Origin: Anolis carolinensis
Lineage: Eukaryota
Direction: 5' to 3'
DNA: 64,000 nucleotides
Assembly: GCF_035594765.1 (NCBI RefSeq)
Contig: NC_085842.1
Span: forward strand, 291,695,749-291,759,748
Shown: piece after piece, positions 4,777-50,088 of the stretch
How positions within the stretch are numbered: position 1 is the stretch's first letter
How the letters are laid out: every line of letters begins with the position of its first letter
Position numbers and translations under genes: made by a program
Notes under the pieces: generated by a model
The model's input: only the letters and a program-made list of their open reading frames with translations
Told to the model about the DNA's origin: nothing
The model's database searches: none

Positions 4777-4905
4777 ACGACAAAGAAATAAATAAATAGC
4801 CCTCCACCTGCAGCCCCAACCCTGCCATCCCACTCTACCTCACTTTCTGAAGGCGACCAGAGCTAAAACGGGTTACACCACCACCCCGACGTTTCAAACC
4901 CGCAC

Positions 4906-5283
4906 CTCCTCGTCCTGCTCCTCCAACGAGGCTCCTCCACCGCCTTCCTCGCCCCTTCCAAGGCCTTCCCGCTGCGGCTTCCCACGGTCCCCAAACGCCG
5001 GCGCCTTCTTCCTCCCTTCTCCTTCTTGAGGCGCCGCAGGGAAGCCCGTGGCTGCTTGTAGTTCCTTCCCCGGCCGCTGGGAGGCGCTGCGCCGGAGGGG
5101 GAAAGGCAGCAACCGCGGAGCCGCGGCGCCCGCGGGAGTTGCTTGCTGCCCGCTGCCGCCTTCCTCGGAGAGAGTTTGCGAGCCGGAGGAGCCGGAGCTG
5201 GAGGAGGAGGAAGAGCAGGCAGAGGAGCCCCTCCGGCCGGCGAGGCGCCTCTGCTGCCCCTCACTCGAAACTTTCTCGCCCAT
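4906..5283 (-). CDS. MAST4: MAST4 (microtubule-associated Ser/Thr kinase 4) first coding exon; gene continues leftwards beyond the window
   Basis: ATG at 5283 in good context (gccATGg) gives MGEKVSSE...SSSGSQTLSEEG...ASLEEQDEE, followed by a phase-0 donor GAG|GTGCGG at 4905. This matches my recollection of the human MAST4 N-terminus (MGEKVSE...SSSGSETLSEEG...SQEEQDEE|LDHIL). 378 nt, 126 codons. Confidence 0.9.
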
Positions 5284-5317
5284 GGCCTCGGGAAGCGAAG
5301 CGGGTCGGGGAGGAAAG

Positions 5318-5359
5318 TCAGCCGCCTGTCTCCGACGGCAACAGCAGCAGCGGCAGCAT
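5318..5359 (-). promoter_or_regulatory. Upstream ORF (13 aa, MLPLLLLPSETGG) in the putative MAST4 5' UTR
   Basis: aggATGc at 5359, TGA ending 5318, 34 nt before the main ATG and out of frame with it. Only real if the TSS is upstream of 5359. Confidence 0.5.
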
Positions 5360-6049
5360 CCTCTCTCCTTCCCTCTTCTCTCCCTCTCTGCCGGGAACAC
5401 AGCGCTACAGCCGGGCACCGCCTAGCGGCAGCCACGTCTCCTCCCCGTTCCCTCCTTCAGGAGACACTGCTTCGCGCCAACCTGCCTCAGGGGCGGGGAA
5501 GACAGGCAGCCCGAAGAGCCAATGGCAGCGCGCAGGGCGGAGGTGGGCGGGGTTCCTCAGAGAGAGCCCCAGGTAGGTGTGGAGTCGATATGAGAGAGAG
5601 GGGAAGGAACCCCGAAGGTCGTCCAGTCCAACCCAGTTGGAACACAGTCAAAGAACTTGGCTTCCCAATAACACACAGGCCGACTTAACAGCCCAGGGGT
5701 GCGTCTACACCAGGCATGGGCAAACTTCGGCTCCCCAGGTGTTTTGGACTCCAACTCCCACATAATAATACAGTAGAGTCTCACTTATCCAACATAAACA
5801 GGCCGGCAGAATGTTGGATAAGCAAAAATGTTGGATAATAAGGAGGGATTAAGAAAAAAGCCTATTAAAAATAAAATTACATCCCTGAGTCCCTTCGGGT
5901 GAGAAGGGCGGGATATAAATGTTGGAAATAATAATAAATAATAATTGTGGGAAATGGGATCCAAAACATTAAATCTACAGTGCAGACCGAACCCTGCACT
6001 GTAGATTTAATGTAGTTCGATCCCATTTCAATTATGATTTATTTATTTA

Positions 6050-42420: not shown

Positions 42421-43502
42421 GTGGGGTGCTGTTGGTATGACCACATTTATTTATTTATTTTATTTCCACGGGAGATAAATAAATATCCATATCCACAGGA
42501 GATCCATCCCAACACCCCACATGGATACTTGAAATTGTAGATAATAGCAAACCCTGAATTTTTACTATACTTGGACTGGAAGCATACTGAAGAATCAGAC
42601 TAGAGGACTAGAGAGGCCCACAAACACTTTTTGGGGAAATTTATTTTTGGAGCATGGATACTATGGATATCAAATTCATGGATTAGGTGGCTGCACAGTA
42701 CTTTTTAAAGGTATCTTAATGGTTTTAACTTTATAAGTTGTTTAGTTGCTTTTAGAAACAGCTGTTATATTTATATTTTTTATCGATGCATTTGTATAGT
42801 TTTTCATTTGCATTGTTTTAGCAAGTTGTAAGTTACCTTGAGACTCATTATTGGGGAAATGGCATGATAAAAATTAAATATAATAATAAATAAAAATAAA
42901 TACTGAGAGAAGTAATTCATTTCTAAAACATAGCAATATAATATGACCAATCCATATTACCACCATGACCACTTGAGGTTGGCAAACAATCCAAGGTAAA
43001 ATGCATGATTGGGGTACTTCGATTGTACTTGGAGTAGATGACCCATGTGGTCTCTTCCAATGCTATGATTCTATGATCCTATAATTCTATAAAGTTATTT
43101 ATCAAAATGAAATAATTAATATGTTTAATAAAAAAATACAACTGCTTTGCTTTGACATGGCTGAATTGTTTTATTACATTGTGATACAGTAGAGTCTCAC
43201 TTATCCAAGCTAAACAGGCCGGCAGAAGCTTAGATAAGCGAATATCTTGGATAATAAGGAGGGATTAAGGAAAAGCCTATTAAACATCAAATTAGGTTAT
43301 GATTTTACAAATGAAGCACCAAAACATCATGTTAGACAACAAATTTGACAGAAAAAGTAGTTCAGTACACAGTAATGTTATGTTGTAATTACTGTATTTA
43401 TGAATTTAGCACCAAAATATCACGATATATTGAAAACATTGACTACAAAAATGGCTTGGATAATCCAGAAACTTGGATAAGCAAAGTTTGGATAAGTGAG
43501 AC

Positions 43503-44652
43503 TGTCAAGGACAGAACGCCACAAGATTCAAAGTAACAGAGTTTATTAGATTACAGAACTCAAAAATGCCCGTAAAACACAAGGGCCAGGCAGTTTTTGC
43601 CTTTAGGAGCAAAAAGGGGCAAAAGTAAATGTTCAAAAGATAAACCGGATTAAACCGGAGTTTAATCCGGGTAAAAAACAAACTGCTTGCTTCAGCCTGG
43701 GTATAAACGAAACGAAAGCCAAGGAACAAAAGATACAAAGAATGCAACTAATTGGCAGCAGATTCCTCTCTGCTGCCAACACTGTGCTTAGAGTAACTTG
43801 CGTCGCTCCCCCACACACACAGCAGACAGGATCTCCAACACGAGTAAATCAGCCAAGGATTGTAGCAGTTGAGTAGACCAGTTCCGTTCCGTAGATCAAA
43901 GCCAGAAGCAGACGTTTGTAGTTTTTCCAAGTCCAAGAAGGGGGGAAGACAAGCCGTGGTCAGTTCAGTCCGAGTTCTCAAAGCAGGAGATGGCGTCCGT
44001 CAAGAAGACGACGGAAGGTCAAGCTAATAAGAGTAAGCACAGGTTTGCACAAACAAATGCCCACACAATCCCTCCCGCCGTCTGACCCTGGATTCCAATC
44101 AACTTACGTCACAGCACAGGAAAGCACACAAGTCTTCAGGGAAGCGTCCCACACACACACGGATCCCAAGCGTTTGCCCAGATTACCTTGCCCAACGCAA
44201 TTTGCAATTGCTCTCAAGCCCCATTTTATGCCAGTTACAAATCTTCATCACTGTCAGCTGTCCTCCTTAACCCGGGCGTTTCCTCATCACTTTCCTCGTC
44301 AGAGCTGGAACACCTCTGACTACGCCCAACAGCATCTCCAGCTGTGGATCCCGTCCCATCCCTCCAGCTAAACCATGGGTCTAATCCTGAAGGTCCCCAT
44401 TCATCTTCTGTCCCATCATGGCCAGTGGCACCCACTTCCTCCCTTACCCGAGTCCAATCCATCTCATCCTCCTCTGAGCTAACCAGCCCCTCCTCCATTC
44501 TCTCCGTAAACCCTTCGAAAGACTCCTCGTCAGATGGTGCTGCAAATATGTCTCGCAGTCTTTTTCTCTCTCGCTCCTCGAGAGTATCTGACTCTCGAGG
44601 AGTCTTACGCCCACGTCTGTCAGTAACAGAGCCATGAGGCTCAATCATAACA
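43503..44652 (-). repeat. 3' LTR
   Basis: Direct repeat of 48696-49845, preceded on minus by the PPT GAGAGGGGATAG (44664-44653). AATAAA at 43547-43542. Confidence 0.97.
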
Positions 44653-47600
44653 CTATCCCCTCTCACAAAGGCCTCCTCCCCCGATGGCGGAGAAGTGGCA
44701 GTGATACCCTCCGCTATAGCACCACGACGACTAGAGGTATCAAGTTTCAACAGCGAACGATGAAAGACTGGATGGACCTTTAAACTAGACGGTAAACGCA
44801 AACGAAACGCAACAGAAGAAATCTTTTTAACGATAGGAAAGGGACCCAAATACCGAGGCGCAAACTTTCCCCCAGCCTGTTTAATATGTTTGGAAGATAA
44901 CCACACCAAATCCCCTTCTTCCAACTCCTCCCCTGCCTGCCTGTGGCGGTCAGCCTGAGTCTTCTGCGTTGCCTTAGCTTCCAACAGTAAGCGACGGGCA
45001 ACATCATGCAATGCAGCCATTTCCGAAGAGCGGTACACAGGGTCCGAAGAGACCACATTGGTCGACGGCGCCACACCTCCCCGTGGGTGAAAACCATAAG
45101 TTAGCTCAAATGGCGTATGCTGACTAGACGTGTGCACCGCATTGTTGTAAGCAAATTCCGCCACCGGTAACCACTTTACCCAAGCCGTGGGTTGATCTAA
45201 ACAAAAACAACGCAGATACTGCTCTAAGAGCCCATTAACCCGTTCCGACTGTCCATCCGTTTGCGGATGGAAAGCTGAAGACACGTTTAACTTAGTCCCC
45301 AAACACTCATGGAAGTGTTTCCAAAAGCGTGACACAAATTGCGGAGCCCTATCTGAAATAATCACCTCGGGTGCTCCGTGCAAACGATAGATGTGCTTTG
45401 TAAATAGTAAGGCCAACGTAGGGGCCGCCGGAATGGTTGAACAAGGAATAAAATGAGCCAGTTTACTAAATAAATCCACCACCACCCAAATACAAGTATA
45501 ACCCCCAGACTTAGGCAAATCTGAAATAAAATCCATGGAAATGATTTGCCATGGCCTCTCCGGAACAGGTAAAGACGATAACAACCCTCTAGGGCGCCCA
45601 ACAGGCGTCTTACTCTGCTGACAAACGGCGCAGCTGTCACAAAAGCGCAGAATGTCTTGCCGCATCTTTGGCCACCAGTAGCTCCTGGTGATAAGCTGTA
45701 CGGTCTTGAACCTGCCAAAGTGCCCAGCCATGGGTTCGTCATGGTGGGCTCTAATCACCTCCAACCTGAGGGTCCCTACTGGTACGTAAACCTGCCCCCT
45801 ACGCACCAATACCCCGTCTTGATCCTGGAGATGCGGCAGTATGGTACGGTTACCTGCAGAGAGCAGCATCAGTTGCTCCTGAGTCCATACATCATCCTTC
45901 TGAGCCTCAAGGATCTGGTCATGTAACCCAAGCTCATTATCTACAACACACAGAGAGGCAGTAGGCAAGATGGTCTGACATACTACCTGCTCATTGGTCT
46001 TAAATTCCGGCTTGCGGGATAAAGCATCGGCCCGCAAGTTTGCCTTCCCCTCCACGAACTGCACCTTGAAGTTAAACCTGGAGAAAAACAAAGCCCAGCG
46101 GATTTGACGCTGGTTTAACTTCTTTGCTGTTTGCAAGTGTTCTAAGTTCTTGTGATCAGATCTGACCACGATCTGGTGCCGTGCCCCTTCAAGCCAGTGC
46201 CGCCACACCTCAAACGCCACCTTAATCGCCAACAACTCCTTCTCCCATATGGTATAGTTCTGCTCGAAGGGTGTTAGTTGCCGCGAGTAAAATCCACAGG
46301 GACGCAAGGTCCCTGAGGAATCCTTCTGAGACAATACAGCCCCCAACGCGTAGCTAGAAGCGTCCGCTTCTACCACGAACGGTCTGTCAACATCAGGATG
46401 GGTTAGTATGTTGTCCGATTGAAAACTAGACTTTAGTTGTAGAAACGCCTCGTGAGCTTCCCGCCCCCACACAAATGGCTGTTTCTTGCGCAGAAGCTGC
46501 GTCAAAGGTACCGTGAGCTTTGCAAAATTCGGAATAAACTCCCGGTAGTAATTAGCGAAACCCAAGAACCTTTGTACATCCTTCTTAGTCTTCAGCTCCT
46601 GCCATGAGTTGACGGCGTCAACCTTATGTGGGTCCATTTTAAGTTCCCTACCTGACACTACATGACCTAGGAACTCCACTTCAGGCACATGAAAGACGCA
46701 CTTGGAAGCCTTGGCGAAAAGCCCATTAGCCCGCAGTCGGTGCAGAACCTGCTTGACATGTTGACGATGTTCTTTCTCGTCCTTAGAAAAAATCAAGATA
46801 TCATCCAAATAAATCACTAAAAATTGGTCAATTAGGTCCCTGAACACATCGTTCATGAACCTCTGGAATACCGCAGGAGCATTACAAAGCCCAAAAGGCA
46901 TGACTCGGAACTCGTGGCATCCGAAACACGTGTTAAATGCCGTCTTCCATTCATCCCCTTCCCGTATACGGATTAAGTTATAGGCCCCCCGCAGGTCAAG
47001 CTTGGTAAAGACCTTAGCCCCTTGCACCCTTGATAACAGTTCCGAGATTAAAGGCAGCGGGTACCTATCCCGAATGGTGTATTTGTTTAGGATCCGATAA
47101 TCGCAGACCAACCTAAGTTCCCCAGTCTTTTTGGCTACAAAGAATACCGGTGCCGCAGTTGGAGAACTAGATGGGCGAATAAACCCCTTGGCTAAATTTT
47201 CATCTAGAAACTCCCGCAAAGCTTGCCTTTCCGGTACAGTCAAGGCATACAGCCTCCCTGCTGGCAGTTTCGCACCTTCTGCCAACTTGATGGCGCAATC
47301 ATATGGCCTGTGCGGTGGTAATTTGTCCGCTTCTCTTTTACAAAATACATCAGAGAACTCCCCATACTCAACAGGCACTCCCTCCATATCAGAATGAGTA
47401 ACATTTAGAGTGCAACAATCCTGCCTCTTTAAGATCACTTTACGTGTTGCCCAATCTACATGTGGGTTTACTACAGCTAGCCAATCCATCCCCAGGATCA
47501 CATCATATCTAGGCAAGCTCGTAATATCCCACACAAACGTTCCCGTTACTCCCTGCACCTCCCACGTTACTGCTGAGGTTTCATGGTTAACCACCCCAGT

Positions 47601-47858
47601 CTCCAGCAGTCTCCCATCTGCTCCTTCCACCCACACGTCGCATGCCTTGCGCACTCTAGGAATGCCATGCTTCTTAGCAAACTCAATATCTACATAGGAG
47701 ACCGTAGCTCCTGAGTCCAGCAGTGCCAAAGTAGAAACAAGTTCCCTTCCCCCAACAGATAATGTAATGGGTACGAAAACATGCTTCCTCCCCTCAGTTG
47801 ACTGCTTGAGGAGCCCTAGTGCGTTGGACTCACGTCGCACTAGGGCTGGCCTTTTCCC
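44235..47858 (-). CDS. pol: Pol (protease, RT, RNase H, integrase with GPY/F motif and LTR-encoded acidic tail), expressed by -1 frameshift from gag
   Basis: LLDSGAT (PR), MPFGL and YLDDILI (RT), EADAS (RH), HH..GH..CxxC and D..D..E (IN), RYLGPF. Open for about 1200 codons with no stop. The frame is -1 to gag and open through the slippery site. Confidence 0.96.
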   Translation of the reverse strand, partial: GKRPALVRRESNALGLLKQSTEGRKHVFVPITLSVGGRELVSTLALLDSGATVSYVDIEFAKKHGIPRVRKACDVWVEGADGRLLETGVVNHETSAVTWEVQGVTGTFVWDITSLPRYDVILGMDWLAVVNPHVDWATRKVILKRQDCCTLNVTHSDMEGVPVEYGEFSDVFCKREADKLPPHRPYDCAIKLAEGAKLPAGRLYALTVPERQALREFLDENLAKGFIRPSSSPTAAPVFFVAKKTGELRLVCDYRILNKYTIRDRYPLPLISELLSRVQGAKVFTKLDLRGAYNLIRIREGDEWKTAFNTCFGCHEFRVMPFGLCNAPAVFQRFMNDVFRDLIDQFLVIYLDDILIFSKDEKEHRQHVKQVLHRLRANGLFAKASKCVFHVPEVEFLGHVVSGRELKMDPHKVDAVNSWQELKTKKDVQRFLGFANYYREFIPNFAKLTVPLTQLLRKKQPFVWGREAHEAFLQLKSSFQSDNILTHPDVDRPFVVEADASSYALGAVLSQKDSSGTLRPCGFYSRQLTPFEQNYTIWEKELLAIKVAFEVWRHWLEGARHQIVVRSDHKNLEHLQTAKKLNQRQIRWALFFSRFNFKVQFVEGKANLRADALSRKPEFKTNEQVVCQTILPTASLCVVDNELGLHDQILEAQKDDVWTQEQLMLLSAGNRTILPHLQDQDGVLVRRGQVYVPVGTLRLEVIRAHHDEPMAGHFGRFKTVQLITRSYWWPKMRQDILRFCDSCAVCQQSKTPVGRPRGLLSSLPVPERPWQIISMDFISDLPKSGGYTCIWVVVDLFSKLAHFIPCSTIPAAPTLALLFTKHIYRLHGAPEVIISDRAPQFVSRFWKHFHECLGTKLNVSSAFHPQTDGQSERVNGLLEQYLRCFCLDQPTAWVKWLPVAEFAYNNAVHTSSQHTPFELTYGFHPRGGVAPSTNVVSSDPVYRSSEMAALHDVARRLLLEAKATQKTQADRHRQAGEELEEGDLVWLSSKHIKQAGGKFAPRYLGPFPIVKKISSVAFRLRLPSSLKVHPVFHRSLLKLDTSSRRGAIAEGITATSPPSGEEAFVRGDSVMIEPHGSVTDRRGRKTPRESDTLEERERKRLRDIFAAPSDEESFEGFTERMEEGLVSSEEDEMDWTRVREEVGATGHDGTEDEWGPSGLDPWFSWRDGTGSTAGDAVGRSQRCSSSDEESDEETPGLRRTADSDEDL
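47812..47858 (-). promoter_or_regulatory. -1 programmed ribosomal frameshift signal
   Basis: G GGA AAA heptamer (47858-47852) in the gag frame, 4-nt spacer, then a perfect 12-bp stem AGCCCUAGUGCG/CGCACUAGGGCU with a 12-nt loop. The gag stop lies in the stem. Confidence 0.88.
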
Positions 47859-48640
47859 GAAAACTGGGAAGGTTTCACATTACAATTTTTGGCAAAATGC
47901 CCAGCATTCCCACAGTACAAACACAAGCCCAGCTGCCTCCTACGGCTCTTTTCCTCTGTAGACAGCTTTTTAAAGACCCCAAGCTCCATGGGCTCTTCCC
48001 CCATCACCACAGGTGCCCTGGTTACATGCATGGGTGGCGCACACATTGCTTTTGAGTGTTTACGAGCCTCGAACCTTGCGTCTAAACGCAGCACCTTAGC
48101 TACTAAGGCGTCCCAGCTTTCAGCCGGCTCCAAGCGTGCTAATTCATCCTGGAGCATATCACTTAACCCGGCAGTAAATAAAAGCATGAATGCATTTTCC
48201 CCCCAATCCAGCTGGTGGCGATACAGGTTAAACTTATTTAAGTAATCCAAAACAGTCCCCTTTCCCTGTTTCAACCGATACAGAGCCCACCCAGCGTTCT
48301 CCGTGCGGAGAGGATCCCCAAAAGTATCAGTTAACAACTTTTTGAAATTATTCAAATTGTCCTTGACTGGGTCATTTCCCAAAATTAAATTAGTGGCCCA
48401 TTGTCCTGCGGGACCGGTCAACAAACTCAAAATAAAGGCCACCTTGCTAGTGTCTGTAGGAAAAGCATGAGCACTGAGCTGAGAAAAATAAAGCTCCACT
48501 TGTGCCAAAAAGGTTGGCAACTTGCACCTGGTTCCGTCAAAGCGTTCAGGAGTCAAAACATGTCCTTTCACAGCCTGAGCTGTTTGGATAACGGTAAAAG
48601 CCGTTTGCAATTGGTCTACTTTGGCCCTTAACTCATCCAT
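47840..48640 (-). CDS. gag: Gag (266 aa, capsid-like domain plus one CCHC knuckle; PEG10/Sushi-like)
   Basis: PERFDG...FL.Q, KVAFILSLLTGPAGQWA, LKQG..V..Y...F, EEPMELG and CLYCGNAGHFAKNC (CX2CX4HX4C). Confidence 0.95.
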   Translation of the reverse strand: MDELRAKVDQLQTAFTVIQTAQAVKGHVLTPERFDGTRCKLPTFLAQVELYFSQLSAHAFPTDTSKVAFILSLLTGPAGQWATNLILGNDPVKDNLNNFKKLLTDTFGDPLRTENAGWALYRLKQGKGTVLDYLNKFNLYRHQLDWGENAFMLLFTAGLSDMLQDELARLEPAESWDALVAKVLRLDARFEARKHSKAMCAPPMHVTRAPVVMGEEPMELGVFKKLSTEEKSRRRQLGLCLYCGNAGHFAKNCNVKPSQFSGKGQP

Positions 48641-48682: not shown

Positions 48683-48693
48683 GCGTTGGGCAA
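48683..48693 (-). promoter_or_regulatory. Self-priming primer-binding site
   Basis: TTGCCCAACGC starts 2 nt after the 5' LTR, lacks the TGG of a tRNA PBS, and is exactly complementary to GCGTTGGGCAA at 49391-49381. Confidence 0.85.
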
Positions 48694-48695
48694 TC

Positions 48696-49845
48696 TGTCA
48701 AGGACAGAACGCCACAAGATTCAAAGTAACAGAGTTTATTAGATTACAGAACTCAAAAATGCCCGTAAAACACAAGGGCCAGGCAGTTTTTGCCTTTAGG
48801 AGCAAAAAGGGGCAAAAGTAAATGTTCAAAAGATAAACCGGATTAAACCGGAGTTTAATCCGGGTAAAAAACAAACTGCTTGCTTCAGCCTGGGTATAAA
48901 CGAAACGAAAGCCAAGGAACAAAAGATACAAAGAATGCAACTAATTGGCAGCAGATTCCTCTCTGCTGCCAACACTGTGCTTAGAGTAACTTGCGTCGCT
49001 CCCCCACACACACAGCAGACAGGATCTCCAACACGAGTAAATCAGCCAAGGATTGTAGCAGTTGAGTAGACCAGTTCCGTTCCGTAGATCAAAGCCAGAA
49101 GCAGACGTTTGTAGTTTTTCCAAGTCCAAGAAGGGGGGAAGACAAGCCGTGGTCAGTTCAGTCCGAGTTCTCAAAGCAGGAGATGGCGTCCGTCAAGAAG
49201 ACGACGGAAGGTCAAGCTAATAAGAGTAAGCACAGGTTTGCACAAACAAATGCCCACACAATCCCTCCCGCCGTCTGACCCTGGATTCCAATCAACTTAC
49301 GTCACAGCACAGGAAAGCACACAAGTCTTCAGGGAAGCGTCCCACACACACACGGATCCCAAGCGTTTGCCCAGATTACCTTGCCCAACGCAATTTGCAA
49401 TTGCTCTCAAGCCCCATTTTATGCCAGTTACAAATCTTCATCACTGTCAGCTGTCCTCCTTAACCCGGGCGTTTCCTCATCACTTTCCTCGTCAGAGCTG
49501 GAACACCTCTGACTACGCCCAACAGCATCTCCAGCTGTGGATCCCGTCCCATCCCTCCAGCTAAACCATGGGTCTAATCCTGAAGGTCCCCATTCATCTT
49601 CTGTCCCATCATGGCCAGTGGCACCCACTTCCTCCCTTACCCGAGTCCAATCCATCTCATCCTCCTCTGAGCTAACCAGCCCCTCCTCCATTCTCTCCGT
49701 AAACCCTTCGAAAGACTCCTCGTCAGATGGTGCTGCAAATATGTCTCGCAGTCTTTTTCTCTCTCGCTCCTCGAGAGTATCTGACTCTCGAGGAGTCTTA
49801 CGCCCACGTCTGTCAGTAACAGAGCCATGAGGCTCAATCATAACA
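48696..49845 (-). repeat. 5' LTR
   Basis: TGTTATG...CTTGACA on minus. No difference from the other LTR seen by eye, and all overlapping ORF translations are identical. Confidence 0.97.
49416..49423 (-). promoter_or_regulatory. TATA-like box of the LTR promoter (copy at 44223-44230)
   Basis: CATAAAAT about 30 nt upstream of the predicted +1 (49391). Confidence 0.7.
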
Positions 49846-50088
49846 GAGACTCTACTGTACTTATAGAAGACTTGGATATGCTTAAGATTTTGCAATAGAT
49901 ATTATAACCACTCTCTGGACTGCTGAGATGCAGGATGAAACCACATTAGTATTATAGAATGGAGGCTTTTATCTTCCTATTGCCCAGTTTGCTCCTGCAC
50001 AATTCTGCTGAGCACCTTTGAGAATTCCAAAGGCTCTGCCCTAAACTACATTTCCCTGAATTCTGCAGGAGCAAACTAGGCTATAGGG

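Follow-up and report, generated by a model that had tools for sequence, protein, structure and literature searches.

How does an LTR retrotransposon prime reverse transcription when its PBS lacks the TGG that priming by a tRNA 3' end requires? The question is raised by a Ty3/gypsy LTR retrotransposon of 6.3 kb that lies on the minus strand, from 49845 to 43503, of a 64,000-nt stretch of Anolis carolinensis DNA (the window, whose coordinates are used throughout). A sequence-only reading of the window had proposed that the element dispenses with tRNA and primes with a segment of its own RNA. Covariation of primer and PBS within the element's family and across three families, together with the lack of any longer tRNA match among 60 host tRNA genes, supports that reading, and we consider it very probable that the element primes reverse transcription with its own 11 nt, by Tf1-like self-priming. 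(The direct evidence consists of primer/PBS complementarity, its covariation, a PBS that is not of the tRNA type and a TATA-like box at fixed spacing.)

The precedent is fungal. In Tf1, nt 1-11 of the RNA base-pair to the PBS; RNase H cleaves between nt 11 and 12, and extension by RT follows (PMC7175516). Self-priming, with a three-duplex "pretzel", has been described as what the Tf1/sushi group has in common (bioRxiv 10.1101/2022.12.06.519325); it has been demonstrated for Tf1, and elements from fungi to vertebrates have been implicated (PMC4600332; PMC6317226). For vertebrate Tf1/sushi elements it has been predicted since Butler et al. 2001, according to papers that cite that work (PMC6317226; PMC4600332; 10.1101/2022.12.06.519325), so that the sequence-only reading was right to treat vertebrate self-priming as a prediction already in print. 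The literature searched, outside which most subscription papers lie, holds no experimental vertebrate case of self-priming and no account of priming in lizard elements. The same literature yielded no copy-level covariation for these lizard families; Repbase, GyDB and supplements lie outside it and may already note it.

The window's element represents one family (A) and is compared below with two others, B (pol ~71% identical) and C (pol 49% identical, chromodomain-bearing). Its main features are the following.

48696..49845, minus strand: 5' LTR, TG...CA, 1,150 bp, 100% identical to the 3' LTR
43503..44652, minus strand: 3' LTR, located by sequence, containing the second copy of the primer at 44198-44188
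49846..49850, minus strand: target-site duplication GTCTC, 5 bp, located by sequence; other copy at 43502-43498
44653..44664, minus strand: polypurine tract GAGAGGGGATAG, located by sequence; near-identical in families B and C
48735..48740, minus strand: AATAAA poly(A) signal, located by sequence, 40 nt from the LTR end
47840..48640, minus strand: gag, 266 aa, open (PF03732, PF16297, PF19259)
44235..47879, minus strand: pol frame, 1,214 aa, open, PR-RT-RNase H-IN-SH3 (Pfam)
47852..47858, minus strand: heptamer G GGA AAA of a predicted -1 frameshift, where gag and pol overlap, from sequence and reading frames

LTRs, polypurine tract, target-site duplication and gag followed by PR-RT-RH-IN are those of Ty3/gypsy; pol resembles Ty3 pol (E 1e-141), and by likeness the element would belong to the Tf1/sushi lineage. 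The LTR ends, TGTTATG...CTTGACA, agree with the Sushi LTR end motifs of PMC3601003 Table 3. A poly(A) signal so placed would imply a long R and a short U5. The proteins nearest to the element's are labelled Anolis carolinensis (90-99% identity), and the sole PDB match of Gag is PEG10 (7LGA, E 1e-14). The heptamer is in the right frame for a -1 shift and may resemble the PEG10 frameshift signal. One of the terminal inverted repeats of a ~330-bp, TA-flanked, MITE-like element (43185-43502 and 49846-49861) apparently received the insertion; elsewhere in the window, a GC-rich island at 4850-5700, whose open frames are of low complexity, is probably where a host gene has its 5' end.

A Pfam search finds no chromodomain (PF00385) in the window's pol, although one is present in family C pol, and the element is not a chromodomain-bearing chromovirus in the strict domain sense. 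Its pol frame passes through the polypurine tract and continues ~139 codons into the U3 of the 3' LTR (44235-44652, minus strand), so that an acidic, U3-encoded integrase tail occupies the place of the relatives' chromodomain; the pol stop lies, by LTR position, 4 nt upstream of the TATA-like box. Family B likewise lacks the chromodomain and ends in a U3-encoded acidic tail, while a family C protein (P0019) and a Podarcis protein (P0015) have the chromodomain and then a comparable tail. A tree of RT/RNase H places the element within a starred 11-row clade (100/99) of mostly lizard-labelled sequences, several of them chromodomain-bearing. As rooted, this tree (35 chosen rows, midpoint root, no named Tf1, sushi-ichi or Amn reference) suggests that the chromodomain was lost in the window's element. 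A chromodomain-bearing Anolis element, Amn-ichi, is said to have been published by Piskurek et al., and family C may be that element.

The features that bear most directly on priming are these.

48683..48693, minus strand: PBS TTGCCCAACGC, located by sequence, with no TGG and no tRNA 3'-CCA match
49381..49391, minus strand: predicted self-primer GCGTTGGGCAA, putatively RNA nt 1-11, from exact complementarity to the PBS, covariation and conservation
49416..49423, minus strand: TATA-like box CATAAAAT, its first base 32 nt before the primer

The PBS begins 2 nt (GA) past the terminal CA of the 5' LTR (48696), that is, at offset 3. The exact 11-nt complement that had been noticed at 49391-49381 is confirmed as a sequence match and is absent from shuffles and control windows: the primer/PBS 11-nt sequences occur 3 times in the whole window and in none of 100 shuffles, and none of 200 non-overlapping 20-nt internal control windows has an exact 11-nt complement in the LTR (the best, 2 of the 200, reach 10 nt), which puts the chance of such a match at roughly P ~0.003. 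The primer is also conserved beyond its surroundings. In 14 divergent copies it is 99.4% identical to the window's, whereas identity is 79% in the spacer before it, 89% over the 20 nt that follow it and 73-78% in the remainder of R; the 100% identity of the PBS in these copies is forced by the way in which they were selected. LTR positions 1129-1152 are 91-93% conserved in divergent copies.

Family A is young and very abundant: 1,349 of its junctions are found in the genome, and the two LTRs are identical in 25 of 57 pairs (median identity 99.9%). Three junctions spaced at 5,205 bp (G000:C1:26757625-26768053) suggest tandem copies with shared LTRs, and similar junction pairs occur at C1:100252492 and C1:100566678. 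R is ~84-96 nt shorter in copies L145, L162, L176 and L190 (also L154, L164 and L201), whose primer and PBS are intact; the primer lies ~600-612 nt from the LTR end in short-R copies and ~695 nt from it in the usual ones.

PBS position 7 is G in 312 of the 1,349 junctions and as in the window in the remaining 1,037; no other letters occur at positions 7 and 8, the two central ones, in any of the 1,349, and there are no rare compensated variants there. The 312 junctions constitute a subfamily marked by one compensated pair, U-A to C-G. Genotyping of 62 copies (2 retrieved separately and 60 taken from the first 100 listed, among them all 16 of G type and 44 of A type) yields 61 with a readable 5' primer, of which 60 are perfectly complementary to their own PBS (18 C/G, 42 T/A). 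In 37 young copies primer and PBS alleles are linked with r2 1.00. The linkage is clade-structured and just as strong for an unrelated pol site, so that the subfamily pair counts as a single evolutionary event; linkage as additional proof of coupling was dropped for the same reasons. One full copy, L179, carries a mismatched T-to-C primer in both LTRs together with the common PBS. Its primer variant is present in 10 LTRs, the other 8 of them solo, and no compensated PBS was found.

Across families the letters change and the pairing is kept. In family B, GCGTGTGGCAA is paired with TTGCCACACGC, perfectly so in 22 of the 25 copies that could be read among 27 junctions; of the 3 imperfect copies, one contains two G-U pairs and each of the others a single mismatch. 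Family C has a 10-nt pair, GCGGAGTCAA with TTGACTCCGC, which is perfect in 8 of the 9 copies readable among 22 junctions (the other 13 could not be read, most of them probably because the flanking sequence retrieved did not reach far enough) and in 4 of 4 longer loci. In each of the three families the first PBS base is at offset 3. Covariation of primer and PBS, by which the sequence-only reading's proposal was to be judged, is thus present within family A (60 of 61 perfect) and in families A, B and C.

Three Podarcis-labelled pol queries lead to family C subfamilies where checked (10 loci), and the 1,261-aa frames of further lizard pol matches agree with that of family C. Relatives in metagenomes give an LTR-like pair at 24 of 79 loci, 12 of which were judged to have credible ends. 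Ten of these 12 have a 7-11-nt complement at PBS offset 2-3 (at least 10 nt in only 4), which we regard as weak, supporting context for self-priming. Eight metagenome loci, L219, L222, L229, L241, L234, L243, L268 and L274, have 8-11-nt LTR/PBS complementarity at offset 2-3, and in some of this set the match lies ~30 nt below TATAAG.

Self-priming of the Tf1 kind would require the primer to be the 5' end of the RNA. The primer had been placed ~30 nt downstream of the TATA-like box, and the distance is indeed 32 nt from the first base of CATAAAAT. The box starts -31/-32 from the primer in families A, B and C despite unrelated spacers, in the forms CATAAAA, AATAAAA, TATATA or TATTTA (degenerate in a few family C copies), as would be expected if TATA-driven transcription had its +1 at the first G. 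Transcription probably starts at 49391 or no more than a base or two from it. In wild-type cells Tf2, for comparison, shows a dominant downstream start. The public runs listed are all contigs and none is on record as RNA; contigs from 6 of the 24 listed runs reach across 49391 into the LTR on either side, and their ends do not accumulate there; as assembled contigs they bear neither way on the start, and coverage across 49391 is uninformative because the 3' LTR brings U3 into transcripts. The loose contig ends seen near 49391 in the same 6 runs have no adaptor or poly(A) tail.

Folding of the window's 5' RNA predicts the primer/PBS helix with pair probabilities of 0.98 for 9 pairs and of 0.93 and 0.63 for the last two (the 736-nt stretch folds with z -2.75). 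The helix appears in 6 of 10 full-length folds; its probability is near 0 in 3 of 3 family C copies, whose folds prefer an alternative U5/leader stem, and in one divergent family A copy. The sequence-only reading had added a second helix, AAUCUG with CAGAUU, across the U5/PBS junction. These segments can pair letter for letter; the helix does not form in the full-length ensemble, and it overlaps the PBS, requiring the same two U's as the last two A's of the primer. As the main second duplex it was rejected, since it competes with the primer and is not favored in folds. Two-strand folds point to a different partnership.

49363..49372, minus strand: R segment +20..+29, predicted partner of U5 (two-strand folds)
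48702..48712, minus strand: U5 segment GCGTTCTGTCC, predicted partner of R +20..+29 (two-strand folds)

This R/U5 duplex (R +20..+29 with 48712-48702) has modest support as the better second duplex: it is predicted in families A, B and C with different letters, and within family A its R side varies with pairing retained. It is equalled or beaten by 2 of 177 control windows, and in the window's full-length ensemble R +20..+29 pairs elsewhere and not with U5. No consistent third duplex was found around the PBS in the folds of the three families.

Covariation is evidence that the two segments pair, not that they prime. The primer/PBS pairing might be selected for a structural role (packaging, dimerisation or translational control), or the RNA might start further upstream with the primer made otherwise, and the alternative stem favored by family C folds, as well as a start site that is a prediction from sequence, speak for this. 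Yet in three families the pairing coincides exactly with the position of the PBS (offset 3) and has its beginning at the +1 that the TATA-like box predicts; its geometry (11 nt, just past CA) is that of Tf1, and a structural role offers no other primer. We judge it improbable.

A tRNA primer fares worse. The panel, incomplete, was of 54 and then 60 host tRNA genes (30 and then 31 anticodons). Among the 60, no tRNA 3' end fits the PBS, the longest CCA-ended suffix match being 2 nt; the best 18-nt register matches at 10 of 18 positions and lacks TGG, and no match is longer than the 11-nt self match, as the sequence-only reading would have it. The best internal tRNA matches to the window's junction are of 8 nt, and one of these is the 3' acceptor strand of tRNA-Lys(CTT), in the usual register. 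A truncated host tRNA-Lys(CTT) lacking CCA could accordingly be imagined to prime through these 8 nt of the PBS, with the LTR match as a copy or a helper; the G-variant PBS would still pair with it through G-U, and a panel of 31 anticodons is incomplete. But its CCA end would stay unpaired (GATT stands where TGG is needed), its match is shorter than the self match, and in families B and C the PBS changes in step with the family's own LTR and not with any tRNA, so that priming of this kind is very unlikely indeed. Chance, for which the shortness of 11 nt and the 10-nt matches in control windows might speak, is practically negligible as an explanation of a match that three families and one subfamily have at one fixed offset, each with letters of its own, and is contradicted by covariation.

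The self-priming that we favor would proceed as follows. Transcription would start at or near 49391, making the primer nt 1-11 of the RNA; these would loop ~700 nt onto the PBS, assisted by the R/U5 duplex. By analogy with Tf1, the element's RNase H would cut between nt 11 and 12 to generate a 3'-OH, from which RT would extend, copying U5 and R. (An RNase H domain is present in pol by Pfam; its role in cleavage here is a prediction.) The Tf1 primer is reportedly not removed. If this holds here too, plus-strand synthesis would copy the primer back into the PBS, and both daughter LTRs would take their nt 1-11 from the 3' R of the parent. A change in the primer could in this way become a matched pair, which would explain both matched drift and copies like L179. 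The loss of the helix in folds of family C copies, the L179 mismatch, the 3 imperfect copies among 25 in family B and the subfamily's standing as one event are points against self-priming.

Comparison with known systems sets the element apart in particulars. With Tf1/Tf2 of Schizosaccharomyces pombe (and Tj1, Tosmo1-3 and Tcry1), it shares an 11-nt LTR segment complementary to a non-tRNA PBS just past CA, the Ty3/gypsy gene order and a predicted flanking R/U5 duplex. It differs in its vertebrate host, in a primer-PBS distance of ~700 nt, in separate gag and pol frames (with the predicted -1 shift) and in lacking a chromodomain, and its cleavage and priming are predictions. Like the vertebrate Tf1/sushi V-clade (sushi-ichi, Amn-ichi/ni/san) it has LTR end motifs and an AATAAA near the LTR end that fit the Sushi LTR model, and a Gag closest to PEG10; unlike that clade, lizard families A and B have a U3-encoded acidic tail and no chromodomain. 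Overall anatomy, polypurine tract and 5-bp target duplication are shared with tRNA-primed Ty3/gypsy elements and retroviruses (e.g. Ty3), whereas the lizard PBS has neither the TGG lead nor a match to a tRNA 3' end.

The lizard element would add to the self-primed elements known in yeast and predicted for vertebrates, with good comparative support, and to a specialist self-priming here is expected rather than surprising. A larger proposition, which we hold to be about evenly poised, is that an amniote genome hosts a recently expanding self-primed lineage (one family accounts for more than 1,300 junctions) that copies its LTR primer afresh into the PBS at each cycle and in two of whose families the chromodomain has been replaced by a U3-encoded acidic integrase tail. 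If so, primer and PBS would drift together, which fits the one natural compensated subfamily and the absence of any other variant at the two central PBS positions, and RNA from tissue would allow RNase H cleavage of a capped RNA-RNA duplex to be read out directly, for the first time in an amniote system. A self-primed lizard family also bears on the ancestry of PEG10/RTL1-type genes. With a family so abundant and young, and with a natural compensated variant in it, RNA ends in lizard tissue could tell whether this tRNA-free mechanism runs in an amniote.
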